Shown here piece by piece: positions 3,949-19,776 of a DNA stretch of 25,618 bases. The stretch is taken from assembly GCA_046758705.1 (NCBI GenBank), contig JBHIAT010000035.1, positions 1 through 25,618 on the forward strand. Reading direction: 5' to 3'. The stretch comes from Candidatus Bipolaricaulia bacterium (lineage in GTDB: Bacteria > Bipolaricaulota > Bipolaricaulia > JBHIAT01). Each line of letters begins with the position of its first letter. The stretch's first letter is position 1. Below the pieces are notes generated by a model. It searched no databases. It worked only from the letters and a program-made list of their open reading frames with translations, and was not told the origin of the DNA. A program made the translations under genes and the position numbers.

Positions 3949-4581
3949 GTGACAGAGCAGGGGAAACAGAAAGCGCAACAGACTGGGCAACAGACGAAGA
4001 TACCGATCGAGACGATCAAGCAACTTCGGACCGAGACGGGGATCGGCTACATGGACTGCAAGCGCGCGCTGGAGCAAAGTGACGGGGATATCGAGAAAGC
4101 TAAGGAGTTGCTACGCCGCGAGGGGCAGGAGCTGATTTCAGGACACGCACACGTCTCCGAAGGACGAATCGACTCCTATATTCACCACAACGGAAAGGTG
4201 GGCACTCTGGTCGAGATCGATTGTGAGACCGACTTCGCGGCCAACAGCGATCCGTTCCGCGAGTTTATCAGAAACATCGCTTTGCACATCGCCTCCAGTG
4301 CCCCTCAATACATCTCGCCGGAGGATATCCCTGAGGAGGAGCTCGAGCGGGAACGGAGCATCTATCGAGAGCAGGCCGAGCAGGAGGAAAAGCCCGAACA
4401 TATCATCGATCGGATCGTGGAAGGGAAGTTGAAAAGATATTATGAACAGGTCTGTCTGCTCCGGCAAGCGTACGTCAAGGACCCTGACATCAAGGTCGAG
4501 GAGCTGTTGAGCGAGATCGCCTCCCAACTGGGTGAGAACGTGGTGATCCGGCGGTTCGTCCGGTTCGAGGTCGGTCGATGA
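3949..4581 (+). CDS. tsf: Elongation factor Ts, short (~200 aa) form
   Basis: 'IKQLRTETGIGYMDCKRAL', 'CETDF', 'IVEGKL', 'ENVVIRRFVRFEVG'. Follows rpsB. Confidence 0.97.
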   Translation: MTEQGKQKAQQTGQQTKIPIETIKQLRTETGIGYMDCKRALEQSDGDIEKAKELLRREGQELISGHAHVSEGRIDSYIHHNGKVGTLVEIDCETDFAANSDPFREFIRNIALHIASSAPQYISPEDIPEEELERERSIYREQAEQEEKPEHIIDRIVEGKLKRYYEQVCLLRQAYVKDPDIKVEELLSEIASQLGENVVIRRFVRFEVGR

Positions 4582-5964: not shown

Positions 5965-6824
5965 AGGTCCGCAGAGCTTACGCCGCAGGGCGCTTCTACG
6001 AGGCCGATCGAGCCCGGTTGATCGCCCAGATTGAGAGGTGTTTCCAGAGCTCTCCGGAACCGGGTGAGCCATCACCCAGGGATCGGTCAAACGTGGAGCT
6101 GCCCGTCGGCCTTGTCCTCCCTCACGCCGGTTACCCCTACTCGGGCGGTATCGCCGCACACGGCTATCGACTTCTGGCCGAACGCGACCCTCTGACTACG
6201 GCCATCATCATCGGGACGAACCACACCGGCCGGGGTGGCGCGGTCTCGATCGCGCTCCATGGCACTTGGGAGACACCGATGGGGATCGTCGAGATCGATT
6301 CGGACCTGGCGAACCGCATCCGAGGTGCCGGCTCGTTCGTTCGGGTGAGTGACCGAGCGTTCGAGCGGGAGCACTCCATCGAGGTCCAGCTCCCGTTCCT
6401 CCAGTACCTGTTCGGCACGTTGAGGTTCGTCCCGCTCGTCGTCCTCGATCCGGAACTGGAACGGATGATCACGCTCGGGGAGACGGTGGCCGAGGCACTC
6501 CAGGAAAAGAACGGCAACGCCGTTGTGATCGCTAGCAGTGACTTCAGCCACTTCGTGCCGCATGAGATTGCAAAGCGCGGAGACCACATTGCGATCCAAG
6601 CCATCCTCCGATTCGACCTCGATGGATTCTACCAAGCTGTGGTCGATGAAAAACTTTTGATCTGCGGCCCCGGGGCGATCGCGGCGGTCATGACCGCCGC
6701 CCAGTCGCTCGGACTGCGCAGAGCGGAGTTGCTCCAATACGCGACCTCGGCAGCGACGACCGGAGATTACGAACGGGTCGTCGGCTACGCGAGCATCGCG
6801 TTCCTCAGGGAACCGGCCGAATGA
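5961..6824 (+). CDS. MEMO1-family protein (AmmeMemoRadiSam system protein B)
   Basis: 'RRAYAAGRFY', 'PHAGYPYSG', 'GTNHTG', 'WETPMG', 'EHSIEVQLPFLQ', 'IASSDFSH', 'ICGPGA', 'VVGYASI'. ATG 5961 overlaps the moaE stop (ATGA), so the ORF-track start 5868 is too early. Confidence 0.92.
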   Translation: MKVRRAYAAGRFYEADRARLIAQIERCFQSSPEPGEPSPRDRSNVELPVGLVLPHAGYPYSGGIAAHGYRLLAERDPLTTAIIIGTNHTGRGGAVSIALHGTWETPMGIVEIDSDLANRIRGAGSFVRVSDRAFEREHSIEVQLPFLQYLFGTLRFVPLVVLDPELERMITLGETVAEALQEKNGNAVVIASSDFSHFVPHEIAKRGDHIAIQAILRFDLDGFYQAVVDEKLLICGPGAIAAVMTAAQSLGLRRAELLQYATSAATTGDYERVVGYASIAFLREPAE

Positions 6825-6918
6825 CCTGCAACTCACATTGATAATGTGAACCGGATCTTGGTAGGCTAAAAACAGATCGATCGTGACCCGCCAGCGACTC
6901 GGGTGGAGGTGAGGGAGG

Positions 6919-7863
6919 TTGAAGCATCATAAAGTCGGCTTCACCTGGATATGGACAGCTTTCCTGATCCTGTGCATCGCCACACTTGGGATGCTCTCTA
7001 TCTATCTCATCTCAACCAGCCTGGAACAGGAGTTCGTCAATACCGCAGGGTGGCTTTCGCACGGGTTCGCCGATGAGGTCTCCCTGCACATCCTTGCAGG
7101 CAACGAAAACAAGTTGGACGCTTCGGTGAAACGGATGGTCAGGAACTATGTGCTCTATGCCCAGGTGGTGAAGGGAGGGGAGGTGCTTGCCGAAGATAGA
7201 ACCGGTGATGCGATCAATCTTGACCTTCCGGTTGCATCCCTGCCATCGGCGTTCAAGATGGAGAAGCGCAGGCTGCCAAGCGGAACCCCGTACATCGATA
7301 TGATCCGATCCTTACCGTTGCAGAACCCTGAGGATGGGGGAAAGGCTGAAAATTACGTTCGAATCGGAATCTCACTCTCTAAAGTGCGTGCCGAGGTGAG
7401 GGATGCTGCTTCGATCGTTTTGAGCGTCGGTTTCGCCTTGGTGATCGTGGGGATCCTCCTCAGCTTCTACCTTGCCAGGAGGATCTATGGGCCAGCGCAG
7501 GAGCTCGCGGGATCTGGGAACGCAGCCTTCTCTCCAACGATGAGCATCGTAAATTCGGATGGATCTATCCTGAAGGTAGGCGATCTGGTCATCGACGATG
7601 GGAACAAGGAGGTCCAGATTCGCAGGAAGCGGGTCGCCCTGTCGCCGAAGGAGTATCAGCTCGCCAAGCTGCTGGCCTCTGAGCCCGGTAAGGTATTCTC
7701 GGATCAGGAGATCCTGGACGCGGTCTGGACGGGGAATCACCTCGCCGTATCCAACGATGTCAAGAAATATATATACCTCCTCAGACAGAAGATAGAGGAG
7801 GATCCGGAAGACCCACAGATCATCCTGACGGTCAGGGGTTTCGGCTACAAGCTGTCGACTTAG
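6919..7863 (+). CDS. Membrane protein: TM - extracytoplasmic sensor-like domain - TM - C-terminal OmpR/PhoB winged-helix DNA-binding domain (paralog 1)
   Basis: Two hydrophobic stretches flank about 130 aa. The C-terminus 'VGDLVID...VALSPKEYQLAKLLASEPGKVFS..EILDAVW...YIYLLRQKIEEDPEDPQIILTVRGFGYKL' is a Trans_reg_C signature. No receiver or kinase motifs. TTG start with GGAGGT SD. Confidence 0.85.
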   Translation: MKHHKVGFTWIWTAFLILCIATLGMLSIYLISTSLEQEFVNTAGWLSHGFADEVSLHILAGNENKLDASVKRMVRNYVLYAQVVKGGEVLAEDRTGDAINLDLPVASLPSAFKMEKRRLPSGTPYIDMIRSLPLQNPEDGGKAENYVRIGISLSKVRAEVRDAASIVLSVGFALVIVGILLSFYLARRIYGPAQELAGSGNAAFSPTMSIVNSDGSILKVGDLVIDDGNKEVQIRRKRVALSPKEYQLAKLLASEPGKVFSDQEILDAVWTGNHLAVSNDVKKYIYLLRQKIEEDPEDPQIILTVRGFGYKLST

Positions 7864-7870
7864 CTTGCCG

Positions 7871-7936
7871 TTTCAATTCGCTTTCAACCGGTTTTTCACC
7901 GGTTTTCCATCGATCTTCTATAGTATTTCCATCCAA
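7871..7936 (+). promoter_or_regulatory. Six 11-bp-phased direct repeats with embedded TATAGT -10-like box
   Basis: tttcaattcgc|tttcaaccggt|ttttcaccggt|tttccatcgat|cttctatagta|tttccatccaa. TATAGT is at 7919-7924. There is also a perfect inverted repeat CCATCCAA-N8-TTGGATGG at 7929-7952. Confidence 0.6.
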
Positions 7937-7995
7937 ATATTCTGTTGGATGGTTGAGGATGGTTTAAAGATTATTACCCAACAGGGGGGGTATCG

Positions 7996-8901
7996 ATGAG
8001 ACAGGTGAAGCGCAAAGTCAAGGTCAAGACTGGGGTCCGGGTTGTCGGGGTCCTGGGGCTTGTCCTGCTGATCTGGTTTGGGATCTCGCAGCCGGCGTTC
8101 GCCCCGTACCACACAGCACCGCAGCCGCAGAGTCCAGCCCCCGCCCAGCTGGTCATCAACGAGGTGCTGTTCCTGCCGGAGTCGGGGGAGCAGTTGATCG
8201 AGATCGCCAACCTTGGCGAGTCCGAGGTAGATCTCTCCGGCTGGTTCCTGTGCAACCGGCCGAGTTACTGGGGAGTCCCGCGGGGCACGACGATCGGGCC
8301 GGGCGAGTTCCTGGTCGTTCACGTCGGGGTGCGGGGGGAGAACACTGAGACCGATCTGTTCGCCCCAGGCTTCGCTCGGCTCAACACCACCGCCGATGAG
8401 GTGGCGCTCTACTCCAGCAGCAACTTCAGCAGTTCCAGCGCACTCGTTGACTTCGTCCAGTGGGGAGCCGCCCGACAGCGTCCGACGCGGCTGGATGTGG
8501 CGATCTCGACTGGACAGTGGAACTCCGGGGAGTTCGTTGACGTAAGCGACCTTGAGGCCAGCCAGTCGATCGTCTACCAGGGAACGGGGGACGGTGCCGA
8601 CGCTTGGACCGTCGGCCTGGCGACGATCGGGGGCCCCAACGAACCGACGGTGGAAGTGGACATCCGGAACTTCGCCTTCCAGCCAGCGAATATTCGAGTA
8701 AAAGTTGGGACGATGGTCACTTGGGTTCAGCGGGATAACGTTCCGCACACAGTGACAAGCCGAACGGGCCTCTTCGATTCCGGCAATCTCTTGCTGGGCC
8801 AAAGCTTCACGTTCACGTTTGAGAAGCCGGGTAGCTACAACTACTACTGCAAGATTCACCCCTCCATGGAGGGGAAGGTCATTGTGGAGGAGGTGCCCTG
8901 A
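7996..8901 (+). CDS. Exported lamin-tail-domain + plastocyanin/amicyanin-type cupredoxin fusion
   Basis: Basic plus hydrophobic N-terminus. LTD motif 'LVINEV...IEIANLGESEVDLSGWFL'. Cupredoxin 'FAFQPANIRVKVGTMVTW...PHTVT...FTFTFEKPGSYNYYCKIHPSMEG' carries a complete H/C/H/M type-1 Cu set. Confidence 0.88.
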   Translation: MRQVKRKVKVKTGVRVVGVLGLVLLIWFGISQPAFAPYHTAPQPQSPAPAQLVINEVLFLPESGEQLIEIANLGESEVDLSGWFLCNRPSYWGVPRGTTIGPGEFLVVHVGVRGENTETDLFAPGFARLNTTADEVALYSSSNFSSSSALVDFVQWGAARQRPTRLDVAISTGQWNSGEFVDVSDLEASQSIVYQGTGDGADAWTVGLATIGGPNEPTVEVDIRNFAFQPANIRVKVGTMVTWVQRDNVPHTVTSRTGLFDSGNLLLGQSFTFTFEKPGSYNYYCKIHPSMEGKVIVEEVP

Positions 8902-9020
8902 CTTCAGCGAGGTGGGAAACGTGGGAGCCATAGCCCAACAGACAGGGGGAAGGAGACGGCCGTGACGGTACCCCTGACGTCTTCGCAAGCCGTATTGTCG
9001 GGGAAGGAGGTGACCTAAGG

Positions 9021-9317
9021 ATGAGAAAAGTATTGACTGTCATCTTGGCTCTTGGCCTGATCGTCTCGGTCAATCCGTTAGTGATGGCGAGGAATGGTTC
9101 AGATGACGGGGACGGGCCTAAGCAACGGAGCTCAGAGATGAGCAGAAAGGTGCTGGTCGGGTTTACGATCGGCTTTTTGTCAGGAGTCATCAGCCATCTC
9201 TTCGGTGTGTCCCTTCTAAGTGACACCGATATCGCCATCCATCTGATCCTCGGGGGAATTGGAGCAATCGTTGGGTTCCTATCGGCGCAATTGGATGGGG
9301 GGAGCAGTGGGAACTGA
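9021..9317 (+). CDS. Small hypothetical membrane protein
   Basis: Strong SD AAGGAGGTGA, signal-like N-terminus, two Gly-rich hydrophobic segments. Confidence 0.65.
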   Translation: MRKVLTVILALGLIVSVNPLVMARNGSDDGDGPKQRSSEMSRKVLVGFTIGFLSGVISHLFGVSLLSDTDIAIHLILGGIGAIVGFLSAQLDGGSSGN

Positions 9318-9348
9318 CCGAATACCGGTAACACAGGATGGGCCGGCG

Positions 9349-10095
9349 ATGAACTCGGACCCACGGATTGAACTGGTCGAACGACTGTTTGCTGACACCG
9401 GGCCGACCTACGACCACATCGTCAACCTGTGTACCGCCGGGATTGACGGGCGGTGGAAGCGCAAGATCCTCGTCCAACTGCCGCCACAGCCCGAGCGGAT
9501 CGTGGATCTGGCAGCTGGCACGGGCATCCTGACCTTCGCCATCGCGCGGCGCTTCCCCGACTGTCACGTGATCGGCGTAGAGCTGCGTGCCGAGTACCTG
9601 GACATCGCCCGGGCCCGGGCCGCCCGCGAGCGCATGGCCAACGTCGAATTTATCCTGGGGCGGGCCGAGGAAGTTCGGCTACCGGACCCGGTGGATGCCA
9701 TCACCTCATCTTACCTGGCCAAGTACGCCGACCTACCCCGCTTGGCCCGCACTATGCACGAGATGCTGCGCGCTGGAGGGCTGATCGTGGCACATGAATT
9801 CACCCATCCCGCCCGACCGGTTCTGGTCTGGGCATGGGAACTCTATATGCAGGTGCTCCGGCGTCTGAGCAGCCGTCTATATCCGCAGTGGCAGACGATT
9901 TTCTACGAGTTGCCCGGTCTGATCAGGCAGACGACCTGGGTACAGGACCTGATGCACGCGCTGCGGACGGAAGGGTTTGTGGATATCCGCTTCGAACCGT
10001 TGACGCTGGGAGGTGCGGGGCTGATCACGGCGAGAAAGGGAACCGCAGCCGCCAAAGGAGCATCCCCAGTCCCAGCAGGATCACACCCAGGCTGA
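9349..10095 (+). CDS. Class I SAM-dependent methyltransferase, UbiE/MenG-like
   Basis: 'VERLF...YD..VNL.T.G.D.RWK', motif I 'IVDLAAGTGIL', 'GVEL', 'LRAGG'. ATG 9349 avoids overlap with the upstream gene. Confidence 0.85.
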   Translation: MNSDPRIELVERLFADTGPTYDHIVNLCTAGIDGRWKRKILVQLPPQPERIVDLAAGTGILTFAIARRFPDCHVIGVELRAEYLDIARARAARERMANVEFILGRAEEVRLPDPVDAITSSYLAKYADLPRLARTMHEMLRAGGLIVAHEFTHPARPVLVWAWELYMQVLRRLSSRLYPQWQTIFYELPGLIRQTTWVQDLMHALRTEGFVDIRFEPLTLGGAGLITARKGTAAAKGASPVPAGSHPG

Positions 10096-10753
10096 TGCTT
10101 TTCAAGATGCGCTCGTAGATCGCTGCGCTGCGCGGCCCGGCGGCGTCCTGACCTGGAGCGCGCTTGAGGACCTTGTAGGGGCGGGAGGCCGTGATCTCCA
10201 CCAAGCTGAACAAGCCGGCGGCCAACGCCACCAGCAGCGCGGCCAGCGACAGCCGGTTGGTCTGCATCACGTAGCCCGCCAGCACAGGCAGCACGCCCCA
10301 GGAGAAGAAGAACCAGCCGTCAGTGTGGAAGCGACCGTTGAACCACTCGAGGTTATAGGCAAATAGGAAGAAGAACTCCAGCAGGCCGATCGGCCATAAC
10401 AGGGGAGCATGGTAGAGGGCATAGTACCCGCCGATTACGGCGGCTGGCAGCGAGGTGAGTATCATCAGGCTCCACAACTGAGCCGGGCTGAAGTGTGTTG
10501 CCCACGGCTTGACGCCGCGACTGCCCAGCGCATCGAGCGCGTGGGCGGCGATACCCAGCGCCAGGAAATAGACGACCGCCAGCGCGCCGACGCGTTTCAT
10601 GTCAACTGACCCGGCCAGCGTTGCGCCGATGACCGTATAGGCGAGCACCATACCGGTGTAGGGCAGAAACAGCAGACCGACGAAAATGCGGAATTTGATC
10701 GGCCCGATGGATGGCACAAACCACTCTGTGTGGCGATCGTTCGTGTCTGGCAT
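10025..10753 (-). CDS. Polytopic membrane protein, possibly a divergent UbiA-superfamily member
   Basis: About 8 hydrophobic helices with 'LPYTGM..AY', 'AAHALDALG', 'FAYNLE..NGRFHTD.WF..SWG.LP'. The UbiA resemblance rests on helix and motif spacing only. Confidence 0.6.
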   Translation of the reverse strand: MPDTNDRHTEWFVPSIGPIKFRIFVGLLFLPYTGMVLAYTVIGATLAGSVDMKRVGALAVVYFLALGIAAHALDALGSRGVKPWATHFSPAQLWSLMILTSLPAAVIGGYYALYHAPLLWPIGLLEFFFLFAYNLEWFNGRFHTDGWFFFSWGVLPVLAGYVMQTNRLSLAALLVALAAGLFSLVEITASRPYKVLKRAPGQDAAGPRSAAIYERILKSISLGVILLGLGMLLWRLRFPFSP

Positions 10754-10876
10754 GGCGTCTCATCCCAGGTCGTGGCGAGCTTGGATTGTGGTGGCACAGG
10801 CACACACCACTCGGCGCAACAGGATATTGGAACAATTATAAGGGGGCCAAAATTAGTTGACAAACTATGAGGATTT

Positions 10877-10907
10877 CTAGCAGATTTAAGATAATGAGAT
10901 CTGCTAG
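10877..10907. promoter_or_regulatory. Inverted repeat in a divergent intergenic region, candidate operator
   Basis: CTAGCAGAT (10877-10885), 13 nt, ATCTGCTAG (10899-10907). The region is AT-rich and TTGACA lies at 10857-10862. Confidence 0.45.
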
Positions 10908-10996
10908 TGTGAGAAATCTAACAACGTTCTATGACCAAACGCATCCCTTGAGCTGTCCAAAATCATAGCAAACTTCGATTCACTTCTTTAGATTAA

Positions 10997-11971
10997 ATGA
11001 TGAAGGCCATGAAGATGAAAAACAGAAGGGTTTGGCTTGCCGTCATCGGGTCGGCCTCTCTGCTTGCAGTGATTACGGCACTTGCCATCTACATCCTCAC
11101 CGTGGGCGTGGAGCAGACGTTCACCGGAAGCGTCACATGGCTTGCCCATGCCTTTGCCGATGAGGCCTCCCGTTATATCGCGATGGCGGACCAAGATAAT
11201 CAAAACCCTCAGGAGACGTTACGACCCTGGGCCCAGAAGGTCGTGCAAGACTACTTGTTCTATGCGCAGGTCGTCAAAGATGGAAAAACCTTGGTGGAGG
11301 AGAAGGCCCCACAGGCGATCAACCTGGATCTGAACGTGGGAACCCCTTCTTCGGAGATGTCAGTTGTCAAGGGACGCCTGCCCGATGGGACGCCCTACTT
11401 AGATCTGATCAGAATCCTGGAGTCGTCTGATGGCAACGTCGATTCGGGGAGCTATCTCCGCATGGGGATCTCGCTGGCTCGTGTCCATTCGGGGGTCTGG
11501 ACGGGGACCTTGATCCTCGCCGGTGTTGGCCTGGCAGGCATCTTCAGCAGCTCCATCTTGATCTTCTATGTCGGTGGGGCGAGGGCAGCACGAGCGCCGG
11601 AGCCGGTGACTGTGCCCGAATTTGCATCGGTACGCGCTGGAGCTGCTGACAACAGGCAAGACGGGGACAACTCTCTCTGGAAGGTTGGCAAGCTGCAGAT
11701 CGATGATCGAAGCAAAAAGGTGCAGATCAATGGTCACAGTGTCAGGCTGACTCCTCGGGAATATGAGGTGTTGAAGCTGTTGGCCTCCGAGCCTGATAGG
11801 GTCTTCTCCAATCAAAAGATCATTGCCCAGGTCTGGCCGGAGAACTCAGTAGCTTCGGCCGATGACGTGCGCAAATATATCCGTTTTCTGAGGCATAAAC
11901 TGGAAGAGAACCCCACGCGCCCACAACTCATTCTCACCATAAAGGGCTTCGGCTACAAGCTCGCCCCTTAG
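10997..11971 (+). CDS. Membrane protein: TM - sensor-like domain - TM - C-terminal OmpR/PhoB winged helix (paralog 2)
   Basis: Same architecture as 6919-7863, with 'LTPREYEVLKLLASEPDRVFS...LRHKLEENPTRPQLILTIKGFGYKL'. Several possible in-frame start Mets. Confidence 0.85.
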   Translation: MMKAMKMKNRRVWLAVIGSASLLAVITALAIYILTVGVEQTFTGSVTWLAHAFADEASRYIAMADQDNQNPQETLRPWAQKVVQDYLFYAQVVKDGKTLVEEKAPQAINLDLNVGTPSSEMSVVKGRLPDGTPYLDLIRILESSDGNVDSGSYLRMGISLARVHSGVWTGTLILAGVGLAGIFSSSILIFYVGGARAARAPEPVTVPEFASVRAGAADNRQDGDNSLWKVGKLQIDDRSKKVQINGHSVRLTPREYEVLKLLASEPDRVFSNQKIIAQVWPENSVASADDVRKYIRFLRHKLEENPTRPQLILTIKGFGYKLAP

Positions 11972-11984
11972 CAATATACGAGGG

Positions 11985-12054
11985 CTTTACCTGGTTTTCC
12001 CCGCGATTTTCTTTTACTTTTCCGGTTGCTGCTCTGGACTTTCCCCGCTATAGT
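11985..12054 (+). promoter_or_regulatory. 11-bp-phased T/C-tract repeats followed by a TATAGT -10-like box
   Basis: ctttacctggt|tttccccgcga|ttttcttttac|ttttccggttg|ctgctctggac|tttccccgcta. TTTCCCCGC recurs exactly 44 bp apart (11996, 12040). TATAGT is at 12049-12054. Confidence 0.5.
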
Positions 12055-12104
12055 TCGTGTATTTTTAGTTAAAGATCTTCAAATCTTCTATATGAGGTGA
12101 TCCG

Positions 12105-12761
12105 ATGATGAAGCGTTCAGCCCAGTGGCTTACGGTCTTAGCGGTGTTGGTTGGAGGAGTGTTTCTCCTCACGAATCTGCAGACAGGGTTCCAAGGGGGG
12201 GACGTCTTGGCCCAGACTGGGGATGCAGAGCCCGGGTGCAAGCGGGGTGCCCCCGTTAAGGAGTTCTTCCTCATGACGGGCGAGTGGAAGCAGACCAAAG
12301 GCATTGAAAAAGATCGCGGAGTTCCGCTGGAAGAAGAAGATGGCACAACCGAGGTCGAACGCTACACCTTCGACCCCGGGACGGTCACCGTGAACGTCTG
12401 GGATTGCGTACGTCTCTTCATCCATGACATCCAGGGGAACCGTCACAGTACGGTGATCTTCGGCACCGCCGTCGACTCTGTCGAGGCTCCCATTGTGGAT
12501 GACCGGGGGAATGTGGTGGCCACAGCCGTCGAGCGTCCCAACCCCAACGCCGGGATCGACGGACCTAATCGGTTGGAAGACGGAGAGTTCGCCCGTGGCG
12601 AGCAGATCCTGTTGGAGTTCACACCGACCCAACCTGGTGTGCTGCAGCTCGTCTGCGAAATCCATACCTTCATCGATGAGGACGGCAACCTGAGGGGCTA
12701 TGACGATAAAGGTGAGCCCACCGGTGGACCGATGGTCGGTTACATCATCGTATTGCCCTAG
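12105..12761 (+). CDS. Exported cupredoxin-fold protein with long insertions
   Basis: Signal-like N-terminus, 'YTFDPGTVTVNV.D.VRL', 'GNRH', 'LEFTPTQPG...LVCEIH-x22-MVGYIIV'. SD GAGGTGA. Confidence 0.75.
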   Translation: MMKRSAQWLTVLAVLVGGVFLLTNLQTGFQGGDVLAQTGDAEPGCKRGAPVKEFFLMTGEWKQTKGIEKDRGVPLEEEDGTTEVERYTFDPGTVTVNVWDCVRLFIHDIQGNRHSTVIFGTAVDSVEAPIVDDRGNVVATAVERPNPNAGIDGPNRLEDGEFARGEQILLEFTPTQPGVLQLVCEIHTFIDEDGNLRGYDDKGEPTGGPMVGYIIVLP

Positions 12762-12850: not shown

Positions 12851-13378
12851 TTGAAGCAGACGCTCGCAACCGGCGCGGTTCTCTTGGTCATGGCTGCCTT
12901 GATCGCCTGGATGCTTCAACGGGTGGCGGAGTATCCCGGCGTGGAGCGCTCCGTCGAGGGCCAGCTCCCCTCTTGGTTTGTGGGGGACACGCTCTCTGCT
13001 CAGCCCGCTCAGCCAAGCGCGGAGAGAGTAGAAAAGACGCCTGAGAAGAACCCATACGAGGACTACACCCTGATTACGGGCATGGAGGTAAAGATTGACG
13101 AAAGGGAGTACAAGCTGGAGCCCAACCAGATCCTGATCCAGGTCGAGGCGCTCCCGGCCACGGTCACGTTCGTTCTCCGCAACCGGGGCCGCGTCACCCA
13201 CGACTTTCGCGTCAAGGGCCACGGGCTAGATATCAAGGCTCCCAGGTTCGGCCCCAGACGCTCTCAAGAGCTTCAGGTGACCTTCGAGGAGCCGGGTGAG
13301 TATGAGATCACCTGTCCGTTGAGCAACCACGCCGAGCGCGGCATGCGGGGGACCTTGGCCATCCAGATTCAGGGGTGA
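12851..13378 (+). CDS. Membrane-anchored/exported cupredoxin
   Basis: N-terminal TM, 'VTFVLRNRGRVTHDF', 'VTFEEPGEYEITCPLSNHAERGMRGTL' (H...C-x4-H-x4-M). TTG start. The stop overlaps the next start. Confidence 0.85.
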   Translation: MKQTLATGAVLLVMAALIAWMLQRVAEYPGVERSVEGQLPSWFVGDTLSAQPAQPSAERVEKTPEKNPYEDYTLITGMEVKIDEREYKLEPNQILIQVEALPATVTFVLRNRGRVTHDFRVKGHGLDIKAPRFGPRRSQELQVTFEEPGEYEITCPLSNHAERGMRGTLAIQIQG

Positions 13379-14796
13379 GCGTGATGCCCGTCGACATCCC
13401 AATGTTGGGTGCCCGCAATGCCCTTTGGTTCGCTGCCCAGCTCCATCTCTTCTTTGCGGCGTTCGTGCTCGGCGCGCCCATTTTTATCGTCATCAGCGAA
13501 TGGCTGGGCCTGCGCACCCAAGATCCCCGTTACGAACGTCTGGCCAAAGAGACGATGAAAGTCGTGGCCATCGCCTACTCGCTCACCGCCATCTTTGGGG
13601 TGCTGTTTGCGTTCGTGCTCATGGGGCCGTATCAGCCGGTCACCAACTATCTGTTTAGAACGCTCTATCCCGTCTTTGCCCTGTACGGGCTCTTCATCTT
13701 GCTCGAGACCGTCTGCATGTACATTTACTGGTATACCTGGGAGCCTTGGAGCCAAACGGTGGCCCGCAAGCGTGCTCACATCGGGATCGGCGTTCTTTTA
13801 AACCTGCTGGGCACGATCGTGATGTTCCTGATGAACGCCGTGAGCGGCTTCATGAACACCCCGCCGAAAGAGATCGAGACGGCGAGCTTGTGGATGATGG
13901 TTAACAACGCCGCCTGGTGGCCCCTGAATCTGCACCGATTTCTGGGCAACGTGACCTTTGGCGGTTTCGTGGTAGCGCTCTTTGCAGCATTTATGTTTTT
14001 GACGTCGAGAGAAGAAGAGGACAGAGCATTCTACGACTGGATGGGCTATATCGGCAACTTGATCGGCGTGGGCACGCTCATGACGCTGCCCTTGGCCGGC
14101 TACATCCTTGCCAAGGATTTCTTTCTGTACGACGCACAGCTGGCCACCTTCATGATGGCCGACAAACTCTCAGGTTACTTCGTGACACAGGGGCTTTTGG
14201 TCGTGCTGCTCTTTCTGGGGGCGAACTATTACATGTGGCTATCGATGAAGCGCATCGAGGGGGGCATTCGTTTTGAGCCGCACATGAAGGCGATCTTCGC
14301 CGTGATGTTGGCGGGGGGCATCATCTGGATGGTACCCCAGAACTTCTTCCCAGATCTGCTGGCCCAGCCCCCGGCAGGGGTGAGCGAGGAGGTGTTGATC
14401 CTACCCGAGCGCTTTGCATTTTTGGGTCTGATGGTGGCCAAGGCGCTGGCCGTCACAGCCATCATCATCATGACCTTCGTGACCTATCTGCTCTATCGGC
14501 GCGCGCGCGCCACGGGCAAAATTTTATGGGGCCGTATCGACCCGATGGCCCAGTACGTGCTCATCTTTATCCCCGCGATCGCTGTGTATCTCATGGGGCT
14601 GATGGGAGCGATCCGCGAGCTCACCCGCATGGACTACCACATCTACGGCTTGGTCAAAGACATCACTCCCTACTGGTATACGGCCACGTTGGGCCATTCG
14701 TCGATCATGGCGGCGGTGACGACGGTGCTTTTCTTCGTGCTGCTGGCGTTCATCTTTTGGATCGGGTTTGTGTTGAGAGGGAGTGAGGAGGGCTGA
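13375..14796 (+). CDS. Cytochrome bd-like oxidase subunit I (non-canonical CydA homolog)
   Basis: About 10 TM helices. Helix I His in 'WFAAQLHLFFAAFVLG', then 'FILLET', 'SGFMNTP' and a second His in 'NLHRFLGN'. 'LMGAIRE..R' stands where canonical CydA has GRQPW. No Q-loop-like region. Confidence 0.8.
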   Translation: MSVMPVDIPMLGARNALWFAAQLHLFFAAFVLGAPIFIVISEWLGLRTQDPRYERLAKETMKVVAIAYSLTAIFGVLFAFVLMGPYQPVTNYLFRTLYPVFALYGLFILLETVCMYIYWYTWEPWSQTVARKRAHIGIGVLLNLLGTIVMFLMNAVSGFMNTPPKEIETASLWMMVNNAAWWPLNLHRFLGNVTFGGFVVALFAAFMFLTSREEEDRAFYDWMGYIGNLIGVGTLMTLPLAGYILAKDFFLYDAQLATFMMADKLSGYFVTQGLLVVLLFLGANYYMWLSMKRIEGGIRFEPHMKAIFAVMLAGGIIWMVPQNFFPDLLAQPPAGVSEEVLILPERFAFLGLMVAKALAVTAIIIMTFVTYLLYRRARATGKILWGRIDPMAQYVLIFIPAIAVYLMGLMGAIRELTRMDYHIYGLVKDITPYWYTATLGHSSIMAAVTTVLFFVLLAFIFWIGFVLRGSEEG

Positions 14797-15515
14797 TGAG
14801 CGATCCCGAGGTGTCGAAGGACCTGTGGCGGCGCATCAAGGGCCCGGTGATCTTCGCTCTGGTCGGCTTGGCTGTGATCTGGGGCCTGCTGCCGCGGGTG
14901 TCCCCAAGCTGGAGGATGCACTTCGGCGTGCCGTACCTGGTGTTTTTCAGTCTGGCCACACTCAGCGCCAGCCTGTTTTTCGTCCTGCTCAACTGGGGGC
15001 CGATCCGCCGGCCCGGCTCCCCCTTTGCCACCTTCGTCAGCATCTTGTTCGTCTGTGTGGCCACCGTCGGAGGGTTAGTGGCCTTTGGGCTCTGGTACTA
15101 TCCCCAGTTTGAGATCCCCCAGCCGGCTGCGGAGCAGGCAGAAGAGGAAGAGACGACGGCGGCCGAGGAGCAGGGCAGGGAGGTCTTTTTGGCGGCCGGC
15201 TGCATCGCGTGTCATTCGATTGAAGCGCTGGACATCCGTGGCGGGCAACGGGGGCCGGATCTCTCTCATGTAGGCAAGCAGGCTGAAACTCGCAAGCCCG
15301 GCATCTCCGCGGAAGCCTATCTCAGAGAGTCTATCGTGGACCCGTGGGCTTGCTTCACCCCCCTGCCGGGAAGTGGGCTCGTCAAGTGCCAGCCCGCGGC
15401 CGATCCCGCGAAGACTTATCCACAGATGATGCCCCCCGGCTTTGGAAATCGGCTGACCGAAGCGCAGCTTAACGATTTAATCGCTTTCTTAAAGAGCCTG
15501 AAAGGAACTCAATAG
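14796..15515 (+). CDS. Membrane-anchored monoheme cytochrome c
   Basis: Three N-terminal hydrophobic segments, 'GREVF...GCIACH', 'GPDLS', 'YLRESIVDP', axial 'MMP', 'LTEAQLNDLIAFL'. Confidence 0.9.
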   Translation: MSDPEVSKDLWRRIKGPVIFALVGLAVIWGLLPRVSPSWRMHFGVPYLVFFSLATLSASLFFVLLNWGPIRRPGSPFATFVSILFVCVATVGGLVAFGLWYYPQFEIPQPAAEQAEEEETTAAEEQGREVFLAAGCIACHSIEALDIRGGQRGPDLSHVGKQAETRKPGISAEAYLRESIVDPWACFTPLPGSGLVKCQPAADPAKTYPQMMPPGFGNRLTEAQLNDLIAFLKSLKGTQ

Positions 15516-15516
15516 C

Positions 15517-15963
15517 GTGGCGGGGTCGAAGCGTCCAAGAGTCGAAGGAGCTAAAGGCGCTCTGACCTCCGGGGATATCGCCTGGGGATCGGTTTTCGTT
15601 GGTTACGGCATCGCTGTGCTAGGCACGCTGCTCTTTGGGGGCCTGGGGCTGTTTGTGATGGATAAGGGGATGTGGTGGGTGGCCAACTGGGGCCTGGGCT
15701 TTTTGCTGCTGGGGGGCCTTGTAGCAGGCTTTTCAGCCAAGACAACCGAACCCTTAAACGGTGCGTTTATCGCCGTCTTCTACTTTGCGACGGCCACTTT
15801 GATCATCTTTATCGAGGAGTTTCTCAACATCTTGCCGGATCCGTTGCCCGGCCTGCCACGAGGGGACTCGACATTCTTCTTCGTCTGGCCGCTGGGCCAG
15901 CTGGTGGCGGCTACCGTGGGAGCCAGTCTGGGTGGCTGGTTCGCTGTCAAGCGGAGGAGGTGA
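15517..15963 (+). CDS. Small integral membrane protein (~4 TM), unknown function
   Basis: Gly-rich hydrophobic helices and a 'PDPLPGLPRGDSTFFF' loop. Packed 1 and 6 nt from its neighbours. Confidence 0.75.
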   Translation: MAGSKRPRVEGAKGALTSGDIAWGSVFVGYGIAVLGTLLFGGLGLFVMDKGMWWVANWGLGFLLLGGLVAGFSAKTTEPLNGAFIAVFYFATATLIIFIEEFLNILPDPLPGLPRGDSTFFFVWPLGQLVAATVGASLGGWFAVKRRR

Positions 15964-15969
15964 GCGCGG

Positions 15970-16857
15970 ATGAAGACGTATCGGGAGATCGCCGGTGACG
16001 GCGGGTCAGATATTCTCGGCCAGGTCGCCGAGCAGCAGGTGCGTTTGCGCGCTCGTATGGCTCAGATCACCCACAAGCTCGCGATCATGAGTGGCAAGGG
16101 CGGCGTGGGCAAGAGCGTGGTCACGGCTAATCTCGCCGTCACCTTGGCACGAAGTGGATTGAAGGTGGGCGTTCTAGATGCGGACATCAACGGGCCTTCC
16201 ATCGCCAAGATGCTGGGGGTGCAGGAGCAGTCTTTGGAAATCAGCAACAGGGACGTCGTCCCTATCCACGGGCCTTTGGACATCAAAGTGATCTCTATGG
16301 ATCTCCTTTTACCTCAGGATGAGACGCCGGTGGTCTGGGACGCCCCAACCCAACATGATCCCTTCATCTGGAGAGGCGCGATCGAAGTCAGCACCCTGAG
16401 AGAGTTCCTTGCCGATACTGACTGGGGCGAGCTGGATTTTCTCCTCATCGATCTGCCGCCAGGCCCCGATCGGTTGCCCAATATCTCTGACTTACTTCCG
16501 GATCTGTGCGCGATCGTGGTGACCATCCCTTCGGAGGTCGCACAACGGACGGTGAAGAAATCCGTTGTCTTGGTTCAGGAACTGAAGGTGCCGCTGATCG
16601 GACTGGTGGAAAACATGGCCGGCTATCTTTGCCCTCAGTGTGGTGCGCTGGGAGAACTCTTCCCAGGCGATGGGAAGGAGCTAGCGAAAGCCCTCGACAT
16701 GGCCTTCTTAGGGAAGATCCCCTTCGATCCTCAAATCACCCGATGCTTCGATCAGGGTGTTCCCTTTATGATCGCACATGGGGAGACCCCAGCGGGCCGA
16801 GCGTTCGCCCAGATCGCCGAGAAGATCGAGGCGTTTCTCAACGGGAGGGAGCGATGA
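15970..16857 (+). CDS. Mrp/ApbC/NBP35-family Fe-S carrier ATPase
   Basis: Deviant Walker A 'SGKGGVGKS', 'LDADINGPS', 'WRG', 'WGELDFLLIDLPPG', 'ENMAGYLCPQCG'. Confidence 0.93.
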   Translation: MKTYREIAGDGGSDILGQVAEQQVRLRARMAQITHKLAIMSGKGGVGKSVVTANLAVTLARSGLKVGVLDADINGPSIAKMLGVQEQSLEISNRDVVPIHGPLDIKVISMDLLLPQDETPVVWDAPTQHDPFIWRGAIEVSTLREFLADTDWGELDFLLIDLPPGPDRLPNISDLLPDLCAIVVTIPSEVAQRTVKKSVVLVQELKVPLIGLVENMAGYLCPQCGALGELFPGDGKELAKALDMAFLGKIPFDPQITRCFDQGVPFMIAHGETPAGRAFAQIAEKIEAFLNGRER

Positions 16858-17246
16858 AGTTCCTGTGTGTGGAGTGTGATGAAGCCATGAAGTTCGTGGA
16901 GGCTGAAGGGCCGGAGGAGGGCTCGCTGTCAGTTCTCTTTCGTTGCTCCCGCTGTGGCCAGACAGTGGCCCTGTTGACCAATCCCTGGGAGACCCAATTG
17001 GTTCGCAGTTTGGGGGTTGTGATCGGTGGGCAGACGGTTCCCCCGGAGCCCCTACAGTTGGTCCGAACGTCCCTGGTCGACAGCAAGCTTCTCTGGACGG
17101 AGGAGGCGGAGGAGTGCTTAAAGCGGGTGCCCGAGTTCGCCCGGTCCATGGCGCGCCGAAGTATTGAGCGTTATGCTCGCGAGCGGGACTATTGGGAAAT
17201 TACCCCAGAAGTGATGGATGAGGCGAGAGCCGAGCTGGGCTTGTGA
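16854..17246 (+). CDS. Cys4 (zinc-ribbon-like) protein with C-terminal PCP_red-like domain, 130 aa
   Basis: ATG 16854 overlaps the Mrp stop, with GGGAGG SD. 'CVEC...CSRC'. C-terminal 'WTEEAEECLKRVPEFARSMARRSIERYARE....EITPEVMDEAR'. Confidence 0.82.
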   Translation: MKFLCVECDEAMKFVEAEGPEEGSLSVLFRCSRCGQTVALLTNPWETQLVRSLGVVIGGQTVPPEPLQLVRTSLVDSKLLWTEEAEECLKRVPEFARSMARRSIERYARERDYWEITPEVMDEARAELGL

Positions 17247-17252
17247 GGTGAG

Positions 17253-18545
17253 ATGATGAGCGGATCTACGAAGGATCGCCCCCAGGTCGTCTCCTGGAAC
17301 CTGACTCAAGGGTGTAACTTACGATGTCCCCATTGTTATCTCGCCGCTGGACGGCCTGCTGAGGACGAGCTGACGACTGAAGAGGGTCTGGAGCTGATCG
17401 ATCGGCTGGCCGAGGCAGGGACGCAGTTGCTCATCCTCACAGGCGGCGAGCCCCTGCTGCGCCGCGATCTATGCACGCTGGCCCGCCATGCCGCTGATCG
17501 TGGCCTGATGGTCGTCCTGGGCACCAACGGGACGTTGATCGACGGGAAGACAGCCAAAAGACTCAAAGAAAGCGGCGTGCAGGGCATAGGGATCAGCCTA
17601 GATTCCCTTGCTCCAGCGAAGCACGACGCCTTCCGCGGTCTGCGGGGCGCCTGGGAGAAAGCCATCTGCGCTCTCAAGATATGCGTAAAGCAGGGTCTAG
17701 AAGTCGTGGTACAGACGAGCGTGCTGCCCATGAACTATGAGGAGATTCCCCAGTTGATCGCCTTTGCCTACGAGACGGGGGCGCGGGCCTTCAATGCTTA
17801 CTTTCTTGTCTGCACAGGACGAGGCGAACAGCTAACCGATATTACTCCGCAGCAATATGAGGCACTTCTTAACCACTTGATAGACGCGCAAGCACGATAT
17901 TCGGACGAACAGCGAGGCTTCCTCGTGCGAGCCAAGTGCGCCCCACACATCCAGCGCCTGGCTTATGAGCGGTTAAACAGCCAGGCAGTTCAACAGTCCT
18001 TGGCTGCAATGGGGGCGGTTGGGCTTTTGGCCAGCGTCGGCTGCCCGGCGGGCACTCACTACCTGAGGATCACTCCCCAAGGTGACGTCACCCCCTGCCC
18101 CTATCTGCCCGTTGTGCTGGGAAACGTCCGCCATTCCAGGTTGCGTCAGATCTGGGAGAGCTCCGAAGTTTTGCAGAAGTTGCGCACTTTAGAGCTTGGG
18201 GGCCGCTGTGGGGCCTGCGAGTTCAAGCAGCGATGCGTCGGCTGCCGCGCGCGGGCCTTTGCTTTAAGTGGGGATCTACTGGGCGAGGACCCATGGTGCA
18301 CGTACCAACCGGGGTGGGCCGATCACAAACAGGCTGAAGGATCTCATCCCGTTTGGACCCTCGAAGCGCGAGCGCGGCTGGAGAAGATCCCGTCGTTCAT
18401 TCGGGGGCGTGTCCAGGAAGGCCTCGAAGCGTACGCGCGTGCCCGCGATCTGCATCAGATCACACCCGAGCTGCTTGCGGAGCTACGGGCTGCCTGCTTG
18501 CGAAAGAAAAAGAAGAAAAAGGACGAGAAAGACAGGCATGTATAA
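17253..18545 (+). CDS. Radical SAM/SPASM protein, AhbD/NirJ-like, with C-terminal PCP_red-like domain
   Basis: 'WNLTQGCNLRCPHCY', 'LTGGEPLLR', 'TNG', 'ISLDS...HD.FRG', 'FLVCTGRG', 'KCAPH'. SPASM cysteines 'CPAG...PCPY...CGACE...CVGCRARA...DPWC'. Tail 'WTLEARARLEKIPSFIRGRV'. Confidence 0.88.
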   Translation: MMSGSTKDRPQVVSWNLTQGCNLRCPHCYLAAGRPAEDELTTEEGLELIDRLAEAGTQLLILTGGEPLLRRDLCTLARHAADRGLMVVLGTNGTLIDGKTAKRLKESGVQGIGISLDSLAPAKHDAFRGLRGAWEKAICALKICVKQGLEVVVQTSVLPMNYEEIPQLIAFAYETGARAFNAYFLVCTGRGEQLTDITPQQYEALLNHLIDAQARYSDEQRGFLVRAKCAPHIQRLAYERLNSQAVQQSLAAMGAVGLLASVGCPAGTHYLRITPQGDVTPCPYLPVVLGNVRHSRLRQIWESSEVLQKLRTLELGGRCGACEFKQRCVGCRARAFALSGDLLGEDPWCTYQPGWADHKQAEGSHPVWTLEARARLEKIPSFIRGRVQEGLEAYARARDLHQITPELLAELRAACLRKKKKKKDEKDRHV

Positions 18546-19776
18546 GCGTATTCTGGTCGCGATCGACAACTCAAAATACGCCGAGCGGGCCGCTGAACTG
18601 GCCGTGGAGTTGGCACACGGGTTGCGCGCGCAGCTCAGCGGCGTACACGTGACCAACGCCGAACTGCACACTTATGCCTTTCGCTTGCTGGAAGGCACTC
18701 TGCCTGAGCGCTATCAAACTGAAGAAGTTTTACAAAAACAGCGCGAGATTCACGAAGATCTTATCCGTCGCGGGCTCACGCTCATCAGCGATTCTTACTT
18801 AGAGCAACTGCGGCAGCGGGCTCAAGCGGCAAGGGTTGCCTGCGAGACTCAGGTGTTAGAGGGCTGGCACTACGAAGCGTTATCTGGTGAAGTCATGGAT
18901 GAGGAGTATGATCTGGCCGTCTTCGGGCACCTGGGCTTGGGTGCCTGTGAGCGTTCAATGCTCGGCGGTGTAGTAGAGCGGGTGACCCGCCGCATCCGAA
19001 AAGACTTGCTCGTGGTAAAGAACAATAGGGCTCTAGAAGACGGCAAGATCCTCGTCGCGGTAGACGGCTCGGAGTGCTCGTTCTGGGCGCTGCGCAAGGC
19101 GATCGTTTTGGCGCAAAGATTTCAAGCCCAACTGCATGCTGTGCACGTCTTCGATCCGGACTTTCACCGCACGATCTTTCAAGAGTTGGTGGGGGTGCTT
19201 AGTAGAGAGGCTGCAGAGGTCTTCGATTTTGAGGAACAGCAGGAGTTGCACGACAAGGTGATCGACAAGGGATTAGAGCAGGTGGGTCAGAGGGTGTTGC
19301 GGAGCTGCGAGCTGGCAGCAGAACACGGCGGCATCCCGATTCAGACGGAGCTTCTCAAGGGAAAATTCTTCGAGGAGATCGTTGATATGGCTGAGATGCG
19401 GGAGCCAACACTTTTGGTCGTGGGACGCTTTGGCCGACACCGAGTTGAATCTTCAGACTTGGGCAGCACGGCGGAGAACATACTGCGCTTGACACCCTGT
19501 AGCGTGCTGGTCGTGAGCACCGATGTGCCTGAAGCAATGAAACACTTCAAGACCCCACAGCAGGAAGCGAGTGCACTACCTTTAAGCTGGACGGCCGAAG
19601 CGGAAGCGATAATCCAACGGGTGCCTGACTTCGTGCAGAAGCTGGCTCGGGCAGCCATCGAAGCGTGGGCCCGTCACCGTGGCCTGCAAGAAGTTCAAGC
19701 GATGCACATCGAGCAGGCGATGAAGGAGCTGCTACCGGAGAAGATGTGGCGCAGGATGCTCAAGGAGGATCCATGA
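18538..19776 (+). CDS. Tandem-domain universal stress protein with C-terminal PCP_red-like domain, 412 aa
   Basis: 'MYKRILVAIDNS', 'GHLGLG...LGGVVERV', second domain 'KILVAVDGS', 'GRFG...LGSTAENILR..PCSVLVV'. Tail 'WTAEAEAIIQRVPDFVQKLARAAIE'. True start is ATG 18538. Confidence 0.9.
   Translation: MYKRILVAIDNSKYAERAAELAVELAHGLRAQLSGVHVTNAELHTYAFRLLEGTLPERYQTEEVLQKQREIHEDLIRRGLTLISDSYLEQLRQRAQAARVACETQVLEGWHYEALSGEVMDEEYDLAVFGHLGLGACERSMLGGVVERVTRRIRKDLLVVKNNRALEDGKILVAVDGSECSFWALRKAIVLAQRFQAQLHAVHVFDPDFHRTIFQELVGVLSREAAEVFDFEEQQELHDKVIDKGLEQVGQRVLRSCELAAEHGGIPIQTELLKGKFFEEIVDMAEMREPTLLVVGRFGRHRVESSDLGSTAENILRLTPCSVLVVSTDVPEAMKHFKTPQQEASALPLSWTAEAEAIIQRVPDFVQKLARAAIEAWARHRGLQEVQAMHIEQAMKELLPEKMWRRMLKEDP

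Follow-up and report, generated by a model that had tools for sequence, protein, structure and literature searches.

Two paralogous regulators in the window

The DNA analysed here is a stretch of 25,618 nt from Candidatus Bipolaricaulia bacterium (assembly GCA_046758705.1, contig JBHIAT010000035.1, positions 1 to 25,618), referred to below as the window. Open reading frame calls show that its + strand encodes two regulators, A (6919-7863, 314 aa) and B (10997-11971, 324 aa). The gene downstream of A encodes an exported protein with LTD and cupredoxin domains, and the gene downstream of B encodes an exported protein that appears to be a divergent cupredoxin. An earlier note on this DNA had described A and B as paralogous 'collapsed two-component' regulators, held in the membrane, independent of phosphorylation and in control of the adjacent copper-protein genes. 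BLASTP aligns the two proteins over their full length with 133/325 identities (41%, E 4e-76) and the six motifs quoted as shared are all present (A residues 45, 80, 98, 118, 150 and 307; B residues 48, 89, 107, 127, 157 and 317), which bears out the claim that they are paralogs.

A and B have the same order of parts: a transmembrane segment (TM1), a Cache/PDC-like extracytoplasmic domain, a second transmembrane segment (TM2), a disordered linker of ~25-30 residues and an OmpR/PhoB winged helix. A Kyte-Doolittle scan finds two strongly hydrophobic segments in each protein with ~125 residues between them, and the basic residues before TM1 and after TM2, read from the sequence, suggest an in-out-in topology with a cytoplasmic winged helix. 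Trans_reg_C (PF00486) is the sole Pfam match in either protein (A 237-312, 77.5 bits; B 247-322, 74.6 bits; curated cut-off 26.2 bits). Pfam finds no Response_reg, HisKA, HATPase_c or HAMP domain in A or B, and the NCBIfam response-regulator models cover only their last ~100 residues, all far under the cut-offs. A and B therefore lack the receiver with a phospho-acceptor aspartate that defines an OmpR-type response regulator. They likewise lack the HisKA and HATPase_c domains that define a histidine kinase, both of which are present in a homologous 520-aa kinase of the same genome. Their TM-sensor-TM part is of the kinase input type, as judged by homology to kinases. The searches thus give the architecture that had been proposed from the sequence, a kinase-type input module joined by a short linker to an OmpR/PhoB winged helix, and this agrees with what PMC10269533 calls a transmembrane transcription regulator (one protein with a DNA-binding domain and one or more transmembrane regions).

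Structure of the sensor, the tether and the winged helix

The AlphaFold model of A was built on an alignment of 39 relatives and has a mean predicted local distance difference test score (pLDDT) of 89.6. It has helices at residues 2-59 and 64-73, a five-stranded sheet at 78-152, a helix at 154-190 and the winged helix at 217-312. The long helix 2-59 leaves the membrane and helix 154-190 re-crosses it, so that the modelled sensor has the Cache/PDC layout of a long N-terminal helix, a PAS-like five-stranded sheet and a C-terminal helix running into the membrane. The best solved match to residues 30-165 is the extracellular domain of WalK (4ywz_A; Z 12.3, root-mean-square deviation (rmsd) 2.6 A, 127 residues aligned), with a sequence identity of 4%; CitA, DctB, TlpB and Mlp24, further Cache/PDC folds, match at Z 9-11. 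The top Foldseek match to the whole N-terminal module is the WalK-YycH model 9a5d_A, and an Atlas model of residues 1-200 has a template-modelling score of ~0.8 to TM-sCache_3_2-TM modules that precede HAMP in cyclases, kinases and chemoreceptors. By sequence, neither A nor B has a Pfam Cache match at E<=0.01. The Cache/PDC assignment, raised as a question in the earlier note, is thus one of predicted fold.

Residues 216-314 of A match the winged helix of 2hwv_A (Z 17.8, rmsd 1.6 A, 99 aligned), and four short strands precede the helices, as in a winged helix-turn-helix fold with an N-terminal beta-sheet. The DNA-binding domains of CadC and ToxR match the model at Z 14.1 and 13.8.

Between sensor and winged helix, residues 198-213 of A are unstructured (pLDDT <50). 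Across the 39 relatives this tether runs from ~20 to ~90 residues and is of low complexity, variable in composition and rich in Pro/Ala/Ser/Glu. After TM2 just the first few residues of A still align with the start of the kinase HAMP. A cryptic receiver or HAMP domain in the linker, which would have undone the proposed architecture, is ruled out by the Pfam and NCBIfam searches and by the shortness, disorder and variability of the tether. Within the sensor Q82, Y146, R148 and G150 are invariant across the 39 relatives, and no His, Cys or Met is. A His in the motif W-L-x-H-x-F-A-D/E is common to A, B and a third paralog of the same genome (C146, below).

Homology to a canonical kinase-regulator pair

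The genome (3.7 Mb, 319 contigs) contains four full-length paralogs, namely A, B and one each on contigs C194 and C146. On contig C50 it also encodes a canonical pair: the 520-aa kinase (TM-sensor-TM, HAMP at 213-265, HisKA, HATPase_c), whose gene overlaps the start of the gene for a 227-aa OmpR-type regulator. A resembles both members of this pair. Residues 15-197 of A align with residues 34-226 of the kinase (27% identity, E 2e-16), spanning both transmembrane segments and a few HAMP residues, and residues 216-313 align with residues 129-226 of the regulator (61/98 identical, 62%; E 3e-41). Additionally, a sensor profile made exclusively from short forms matches the C50 kinase at E 1e-27. 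Because the kinase alignment ends and the regulator alignment starts there, the join appears to lie within ~18 residues of A, and the part lost would be the transmitter and the receiver. This supports the proposed derivation from a kinase and a regulator; 'collapsed two-component' appears to be a fair description and the earlier reading largely right.

In a sensor tree of 62 modules (37 short forms, 23 kinases, 2 unclassified; quick search), a single branch separates the short forms from the kinases, with one change and a support of 91 in the Shimodaira-Hasegawa-like approximate likelihood ratio test. A single ancient origin of the short forms is favoured by these comparisons, though not proven.

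Distribution of the family in Bipolaricaulota

The best 120 of 1396 sequence matches have PF00486 only, range from 234 to 368 aa in length and in most cases span 83-100% of A; the named ones among these 120 come from Candidatus Bipolaricaulota/Acetothermia, some of them mislabelled MtrA. The sensor is present in 63 of 184 genomes of the phylum (33 of the 71 high-quality ones), with up to 7 sensor-domain matches per genome when short and kinase-length frames are combined. By the length of the enclosing frame, the 123 sensor matches comprise 77 at 300-420 aa, 42 at 470 aa or more and 4 in shorter frames, so the homologs are not nearly all separate kinase and regulator pairs. In a library of 1.84 billion representatives clustered at 50% identity, 257 representatives match at E<=1e-30; ~92 of the best 150 match end to end (hand count), so that the family comprises at least ~90 such clusters. 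A metagenome scan with A alone as the query found no relative, and a scan with the alignment as the query did find relatives. A and B belong to a family widespread in Bipolaricaulota, one with intact frames and too large for the pair to be a one-off deletion.

Some further sequences lie near the family. Soluble proteins of 270-320 aa from metagenome contigs (L152-L171) were considered as further short forms and rejected, as they have no transmembrane segment and have a degenerate receiver-like N-terminus; the lone member with a hydrophobic N-terminal stretch (L166) likely reflects an over-long open reading frame start. They have an Arg-rich linker, an OmpR-type winged helix and no Response_reg match, and look like another kind of phosphorylation-independent OmpR relative. 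Possible tandem winged-helix repeats, or artefacts, are seen in P0189 (1500 aa, 9 matched stretches), P0194 (692 aa, 6) and P0186 (479 aa, 4).

A conserved downstream gene, X

The earlier note had proposed that the genes downstream of such regulators be tabulated across genomes. A conserved association was found, but it is with a gene we call X and not with copper proteins. X encodes an exported helical family of 180-220 aa and lies directly after 28 of the 36 unique short-form regulators found outside this genome, on the same strand and with a gap of -23 to 147 bp. Of the other eight, one has no flank and seven precede something else: a clade of four (one solute-binding protein, three without a clear gene), one Kelch protein and two B-type loci. 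Variant short forms with longer or divergent sensors also occur (L029:4128-5330, longer at 400 aa; L148:506-1381; L149:561-1475), and L029 and L148 still precede X where flank exists.

X has no Pfam match even at E 10, no sequence relative in the PDB (best E 0.025, a designed protein) and no Foldseek match in the PDB at E<=0.001. It is modelled as a helical bundle (pLDDT 89.6, predicted template-modelling score 0.80). For one relative from another genome (L015), we predicted the complex of the regulator's periplasmic domain (27-168) with mature X (26-183). The interaction prediction score from aligned errors (ipSAE) is 0.66 (runs 0.66, 0.61 and 0.72) and the best of three controls is 0.00; by a rough calibration, in which our own alignments were used, 0.66 is reached by 116/157 solved complexes and 2/215 mismatched pairs. 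The runs share at least 80% of contacts and the partner has a pLDDT of 91. The predicted interface on the regulator consists of the W-x-x-x-x-F-A-D helix (residues 38-52) together with residues 73-83 and 156-160. Binding of X to the sensor domain of this relative is therefore supported at the level of modelling.

X was not found beside any of the four paralogs of this genome, nor beside the kinase loci examined, most of which have just 1.5 kb of flank. The genome's only X-like domain (hmmsearch E 3.8e-10) lies on contig C171, within a 401-aa frame (C171:5400-6605, - strand; locus L205:3401-4606) that also has a weak cupredoxin-like N-terminus and a weak RskA_C-like middle (E 0.0027). This frame is flanked by genes for a 125-aa cupredoxin and a DUF420 membrane protein. 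The C171 protein may be a partner that the four paralogs share.

Downstream genes in this genome and the copper link

The gaps between regulator and downstream gene are 132 bp (A) and 133 bp (B), so the downstream genes are not as strictly adjacent as had been stated. The first product is a cupredoxin by direct family match and the second a putative one by homology. The protein after A has an N-terminal hydrophobic segment (8-37) and matches LTD, Cupredoxin_1 (48 bits) and Copper-bind (47.7 bits), both cupredoxin scores being above cut-off, as well as an NCBIfam amicyanin model under its cut-off. The protein after B has no Pfam match even at E 10. Among its homologs, 9 of 18 carry PF13473 and/or PF00127, and H107, H114, C184, H187 and M210 are invariant in 12 sequences. 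This suggests a divergent cupredoxin, recognized by homology and not by a direct family match.

The C194 paralog precedes an LTD(-cupredoxin) gene, as A does, and the C146 paralog precedes two genes for CHRD proteins; a Crp-family gene adjoins the C146 paralog. B has its nearest relatives in genomes G102 and G104 (support 100 in the sensor tree). In G104 the relative of B is followed by Rrf2, DUF7482, a homolog of the 12105-12761 product (30% identity, E 4e-19), a cupredoxin, a cytochrome bd-I-like protein, cytochrome c and a NUBPL-type ATPase. The association of B with cupredoxin and cytochrome genes recurs in two other genomes, with an Rrf2 regulator gene between. Taken together, the data suggest that the copper link holds for the clade of B, is local for A and is not family-wide. 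The proposed control of copper genes thus stands in part: the cluster after B recurs, but 28/36 relatives precede X and 0/36 have a cupredoxin as the first downstream gene.

The cluster at 12851-19776 (+ strand) encodes a cupredoxin, a cytochrome bd subunit-I-like protein without a recognizable partner subunit, a c-type cytochrome, a NUBPL/ParA-type ATPase, three PCP_red-domain proteins, a radical SAM/SPASM protein and tandem Usp domains. A syntenic cluster is present in G104, with Rrf2, DUF7482 and a cytochrome-d1-like propeller in addition, and the cluster appears to be an undescribed respiratory or detoxifying module.

Phased repeat arrays

T-rich units at 11-bp spacing lie in the spacers after all four paralogs (Table 1), which makes the proposed control of the adjacent gene plausible. 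In the array after A, period 11 gives 0.80 bits/column in comparison with at most 0.52 for periods 8-10 and 12-14, and in the array after B it is again the best (0.63 vs at most 0.52). With a matrix made from A's six units alone, strong arrays were located at other places in the genome: one lies upstream of an HtrA-like protease gene that diverges from the C50 kinase pair, one upstream of a TolC-TolC-HlyD-ABC operon and one upstream of a sigma-70-family gene. A test matrix was then trained only on these three loci and 7,369,392 positions were scanned. The spacers after A, C194 and C146 rank 4th, 5th and 7th among distinct sites, and the 6th-ranked site lies upstream of genes for a membrane protein and a molybdopterin oxidoreductase. 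In the arrays on C50, C92 and C25, a -10-like hexamer begins 19 nt after the start of the last unit. Together with the C47 site, these arrays mark a candidate envelope-stress-type regulon of the canonical OmpR-type pair.

The arrays are also seen in other genomes. In 12 orthologous spacers of the X type the pattern resembles a footprint, with invariant cores of 6-7 bp at 11-bp spacing and variable bases between them; two of the 12 lack about one unit. These spacers end in an invariant T-T-C-T-A-T-T-C that lies ~22 bp before a -10-like box. There is an array between the L029 variant regulator and X, and the three-locus matrix also finds arrays in divergent orientation beside canonical pairs of other genomes (L022, L027, L028, L030, L038 and L104). 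The array type after B is kept in the G104 and G102 spacers (77% mean column identity), and the recognition helix of B is unlike that of A in the alignment of the 39 relatives. Such a joint change is expected if each regulator reads its own spacer. PhoB and OmpR likewise read phased direct repeats, and we infer that the winged helices of this clade, canonical and collapsed, do so too.

The protease was considered as a general partner of the canonical pairs and rejected, as the divergent genes in other genomes are not HtrA-like and the link is therefore local. Of five such genes examined, four have no Pfam family and the fifth has DUF2231. At L022, L028, L104 and L127 the products of the divergent genes are exported, 285-313 aa long and without a Pfam family, with an array of the same type between gene and kinase, and at least those of L022 and L028 have Cys-containing N-terminal regions (first 40 residues).

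Table 1. Coordinates of the regulator domains, neighbouring genes and repeat arrays (positions are those of the window unless a contig is named; residue ranges refer to the protein)
Feature	Position	Strand	Basis or remark
Regulator A, TM1	residues 5-35, nt 6931-7023	+	Kyte-Doolittle scan
Regulator A, extracytoplasmic Cache/PDC-like domain	residues 36-158, nt 7024-7392	+	fold matches
Regulator A, TM2	residues 159-190, nt 7393-7488	+	Kyte-Doolittle scan
Regulator A, disordered linker	residues 191-215, nt 7489-7563	+	AlphaFold model
Regulator A, OmpR/PhoB winged helix	residues 216-314, nt 7564-7860	+	Pfam, AlphaFold model
Six 11-bp-phased units, core YTTCYAY	7871-7936	+	between A and LTD-cupredoxin gene; proposed operator
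Exported LTD + cupredoxin (amicyanin/plastocyanin-like), 301 aa	7996-8901	+	proposed target of A
Regulator B	10997-11971	+	TM1 11-42; extracytoplasmic 43-169; TM2 170-195; linker ~196-224; winged helix 225-323
Six 11-bp-phased T/C-rich units	11986-12051	+	between B and cupredoxin gene; diverged putative operator type
Exported divergent (putative) cupredoxin, 218 aa	12105-12761	+	first gene of cluster after B
Cupredoxin-like protein	12851-13378	+	Pfam
Cytochrome bd subunit-I-like membrane protein	13375-14796	+	Pfam
c-type cytochrome	14796-15515	+	Pfam
Strong array, contig C50	~16680-16721	-	upstream of HtrA-like protease gene divergent from kinase pair
Strong array, contig C92	~6172-6215	+	upstream of TolC-TolC-HlyD-ABC operon
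Strong array, contig C25	~4530-4574	-	upstream of sigma-70-family gene
Array, contig C47	~17575-17618	-	upstream of membrane protein + molybdopterin oxidoreductase; 6th-ranked site

Other features of the window

Upstream of A there is a perfect palindrome, TCACAT-TGATA-ATGTGA (6833-6849), and upstream of B there are 9-bp inverted repeats (CTAGCAGAT ... ATCTGCTAG; 10877-10907); both are possible operators of other regulators. A strong promoter-like site (11/12 matches) for the divergent gene upstream of B lies at 10863-10835 on the - strand. Additionally, an intein that contains a LAGLIDADG homing-endonuclease domain interrupts the DnaB helicase gene (196-2862, - strand). The sequencing runs listed as containing this DNA are all DNA runs, from one study, and none is an RNA run.

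Proposed mode of action and alternatives

We consider it probable that A and B are membrane-anchored, phosphorylation-independent transcription factors, several membrane-held molecules of which occupy an array and activate the adjacent promoter. What was observed is how the proteins are built, that they are homologous to both parents, that the family is conserved along with its downstream gene, and that the arrays are phased; regulation by A and B and the signal that is sensed are what we infer from them. In the proposed scheme, the TM-Cache-TM module of a kinase and the OmpR/PhoB winged helix of the regulator cognate to it would have become linked by a short disordered tether, with HAMP, HisKA, HATPase and receiver lost. 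The winged helices of several molecules would then bind side by side on 4-6 units one DNA turn apart, and binding just upstream of the neighbouring promoter would switch the gene on. Since the tether is floppy and variable in length, an outside signal is probably not passed on as a rigid push across the membrane; instead, it would change how the sensor module self-associates, how stable it is or how it binds a partner. In most relatives the target would be the exported X, which is predicted to dock on the sensor and so to form a feedback pair, and the four paralogs of this genome would have been rewired to cupredoxin, CHRD and respiratory genes.

A more extensive version of this scheme is put forward only tentatively, as one that we consider less likely than not. 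It would see a phylum-wide two-gene signalling module with a protein partner in place of phosphotransfer, in which the Cache sensor-winged helix protein activates X from the membrane and X docks on the W-x-x-x-x-F-A-D helix, closing a feedback loop. The ancestral 11-bp-phased YTTCYAY code would have been kept, so that canonical and collapsed systems read overlapping regulons, and in this vent bacterium the regulator would have undergone four duplications, with the copies rewired to cupredoxin, CHRD and respiratory genes.

Several points weigh against activation of the adjacent promoters by A and B and against the history outlined above. The case for DNA binding by A and B consists of family membership and position. 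The predicted complex with X is that of a relative from another genome, and no X gene adjoins A or B. The spacers after C194 and C146 favour period 8 (0.66 and 0.65) over period 11 (0.60 and 0.63). The array after B is weak with the general matrix: it scores 3.6, a value equalled or exceeded at 102 positions, and does not figure among the 30 best distinct sites. The promoter after A is ambiguous, as a consensus scan puts the -10-like hexamer inside unit 5 of the array. Phased T-rich tracts could also be intrinsically curved DNA, though the X-type arrays are G/C-rich. The winged-helix tree (98 columns) is poorly resolved and interleaves short forms and canonical regulators, with five changes on the free tree; one clade of short forms is not rejected on it (approximately unbiased (AU) test p 0.40, log-likelihood difference 3.45; 55 rows after removal of 9 long or partial rows and 30 near-duplicates). 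Finally, the canonical regulators could be the array binders.

This last point can be developed into an explanation in which the arrays belong to one or more canonical two-component regulators and A and B modulate the neighbouring genes, perhaps by competing for the same sites or by forming heterodimers, without being their main activators. The three strongest arrays of the genome (protease, TolC/HlyD/ABC and sigma factor) adjoin no short-form regulator, and the canonical winged helices are 62% identical to that of A. However, the strict order of regulator, spacer and target in 28/36 relatives, with a conserved array between, is difficult to reconcile with a mere modulator, as is the changed recognition helix of the B-type regulators alongside their changed and conserved array type. 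We therefore consider this explanation unlikely. Direct sensing of copper or redox state, in which A and B would themselves bind copper through their extracytoplasmic domain and adjust how much of the adjacent copper proteins is made, also seems improbable to us. The cupredoxin genes downstream, the CHRD proteins after one paralog, the fusion of the genome's sole X domain to a cupredoxin-like stretch beside another cupredoxin, and the motif His shared by A, B and C146 would all fit. The lack of any invariant His, Cys or Met in the sensor across the relatives does not, nor does the finding that most relatives precede X and not copper proteins, and the helix that carries the motif is the predicted docking surface for X in a relative.

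The disordered, variable and Pro/Ala/Ser/Glu-rich tether suggests another route, proteolytic release, in which the membrane-held protein is inactive until a signal leads to cleavage in the tether or TM2 and the soluble winged helix then acts like an unphosphorylated OmpR-type activator. CadC is reported to be activated in a cleavage-dependent manner (PMC11484849). Nevertheless, the loci examined show no protease gene as a consistent neighbour, molecules clustered at the membrane would suit arrays of 4-6 sites just as well, and ToxR-type regulators are reported to act from the membrane (PMC10629549, PMC10269533); release is in our view unlikely. That A and B are non-functional remnants of decayed two-component operons is hardly credible. 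A chimeric remnant of the PilS receptor with PilR's DNA-binding domain, Rsp, is mentioned in the accessible text of PMC10269533, but intact frames in hundreds of sequences, motifs conserved in both domains, conserved synteny and spacers, and up to 7 sensor-domain matches per genome (short and kinase-length) all speak against decay. Activation by clustered membrane-held A and B thus remains the explanation that we prefer.

Comparison with known systems

ToxR, CadC and TcpP have an N-terminal winged helix, one transmembrane segment and a C-terminal periplasmic domain. A and B resemble them in that one polypeptide senses outside and would bind DNA inside via an OmpR/PhoB winged helix, without phosphorylation, and in having a disordered juxtamembrane linker. 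In contrast, the winged helix of A and B is C-terminal and the sensor is a loop between two transmembrane segments, so the topology is reversed, as the earlier note had pointed out. The sensor is moreover a kinase-type Cache/PDC module with demonstrable kinase homologs. WalK (YycG) is also a sensor that works with extracytoplasmic partners (YycH/YycI), but it is a full kinase, and YycH and YycI are unrelated to X; CpxP/CpxA, CssRS/HtrA and HprSR/MsrPQ are analogous systems. The C50 pair and its orthologs share with A and B a homologous TM-sensor-TM, a 62% identical winged helix and the same array type nearby; they differ in having HAMP, HisKA, HATPase_c and a receiver, split over two proteins. 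ToxR is reported to work with periplasmic ToxS, and the parallel to a ToxS/TcpH-like partner here would be X, predicted with the relative L015 rather than with A or B.

Demey et al. (2023; PMC10269533), in the accessible material, list 50,302 transmembrane regulators, of which 3,459 have Trans_reg_C and 17% have two transmembrane regions. Sensor-first layouts appear there as dCache_1,HTH_18 (936 with dCache_1) and sCache_3_3,HAMP,HTH_11, and a 'hybrid' class retains kinase and receiver domains, both of which A and B lack. The same source cites Rsp of Neisseria gonorrhoeae, the PilS/PilR chimera, as a hint that transmembrane regulators evolve from two-component systems, so that descent of this kind already has a printed precedent. 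Rsp is like A and B in that the membrane receptor part of a kinase is joined to the DNA-binding part of a regulator; it differs, as far as that text goes, in being derived from PilS/PilR and not OmpR-type, and in being a remnant in one lineage, whereas A and B stand in a family that spans the phylum, has several paralogs and keeps its targets. The main text of that source uses neither Cache nor Trans_reg_C as a word, Bipolaricaulota is absent from the nine supplementary files searched, and the TM-Cache-TM-OmpR-helix family, the parent pair, X and the arrays are not described in the material covered. A full-text literature search, with subscription journals outside its coverage, likewise gave no description of the family. 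A and B are thus transmembrane one-component regulators, which is a known kind, in a previously undescribed arrangement, for which the evolutionary and cis-regulatory context is unusually complete and X is a new candidate partner.

In summary, both parents, a sensor kinase and a response regulator, and what appears to be their fusion offspring survive side by side in one genome. This makes it testable what phosphotransfer adds to signalling and what replaces it, be it clustering, partner binding or proteolysis. The family would provide compact single-protein devices that lead from sensor to promoter with a readable putative operator. Its candidate partner, the exported X, represents a new protein family for which a binding surface has been predicted. 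We know of no cultured Bipolaricaulota that serve as models for genetics. The arrays described here offer a first candidate regulon for the phylum, which may bring envelope, efflux, sigma-factor, cupredoxin and respiratory genes together under one array type.

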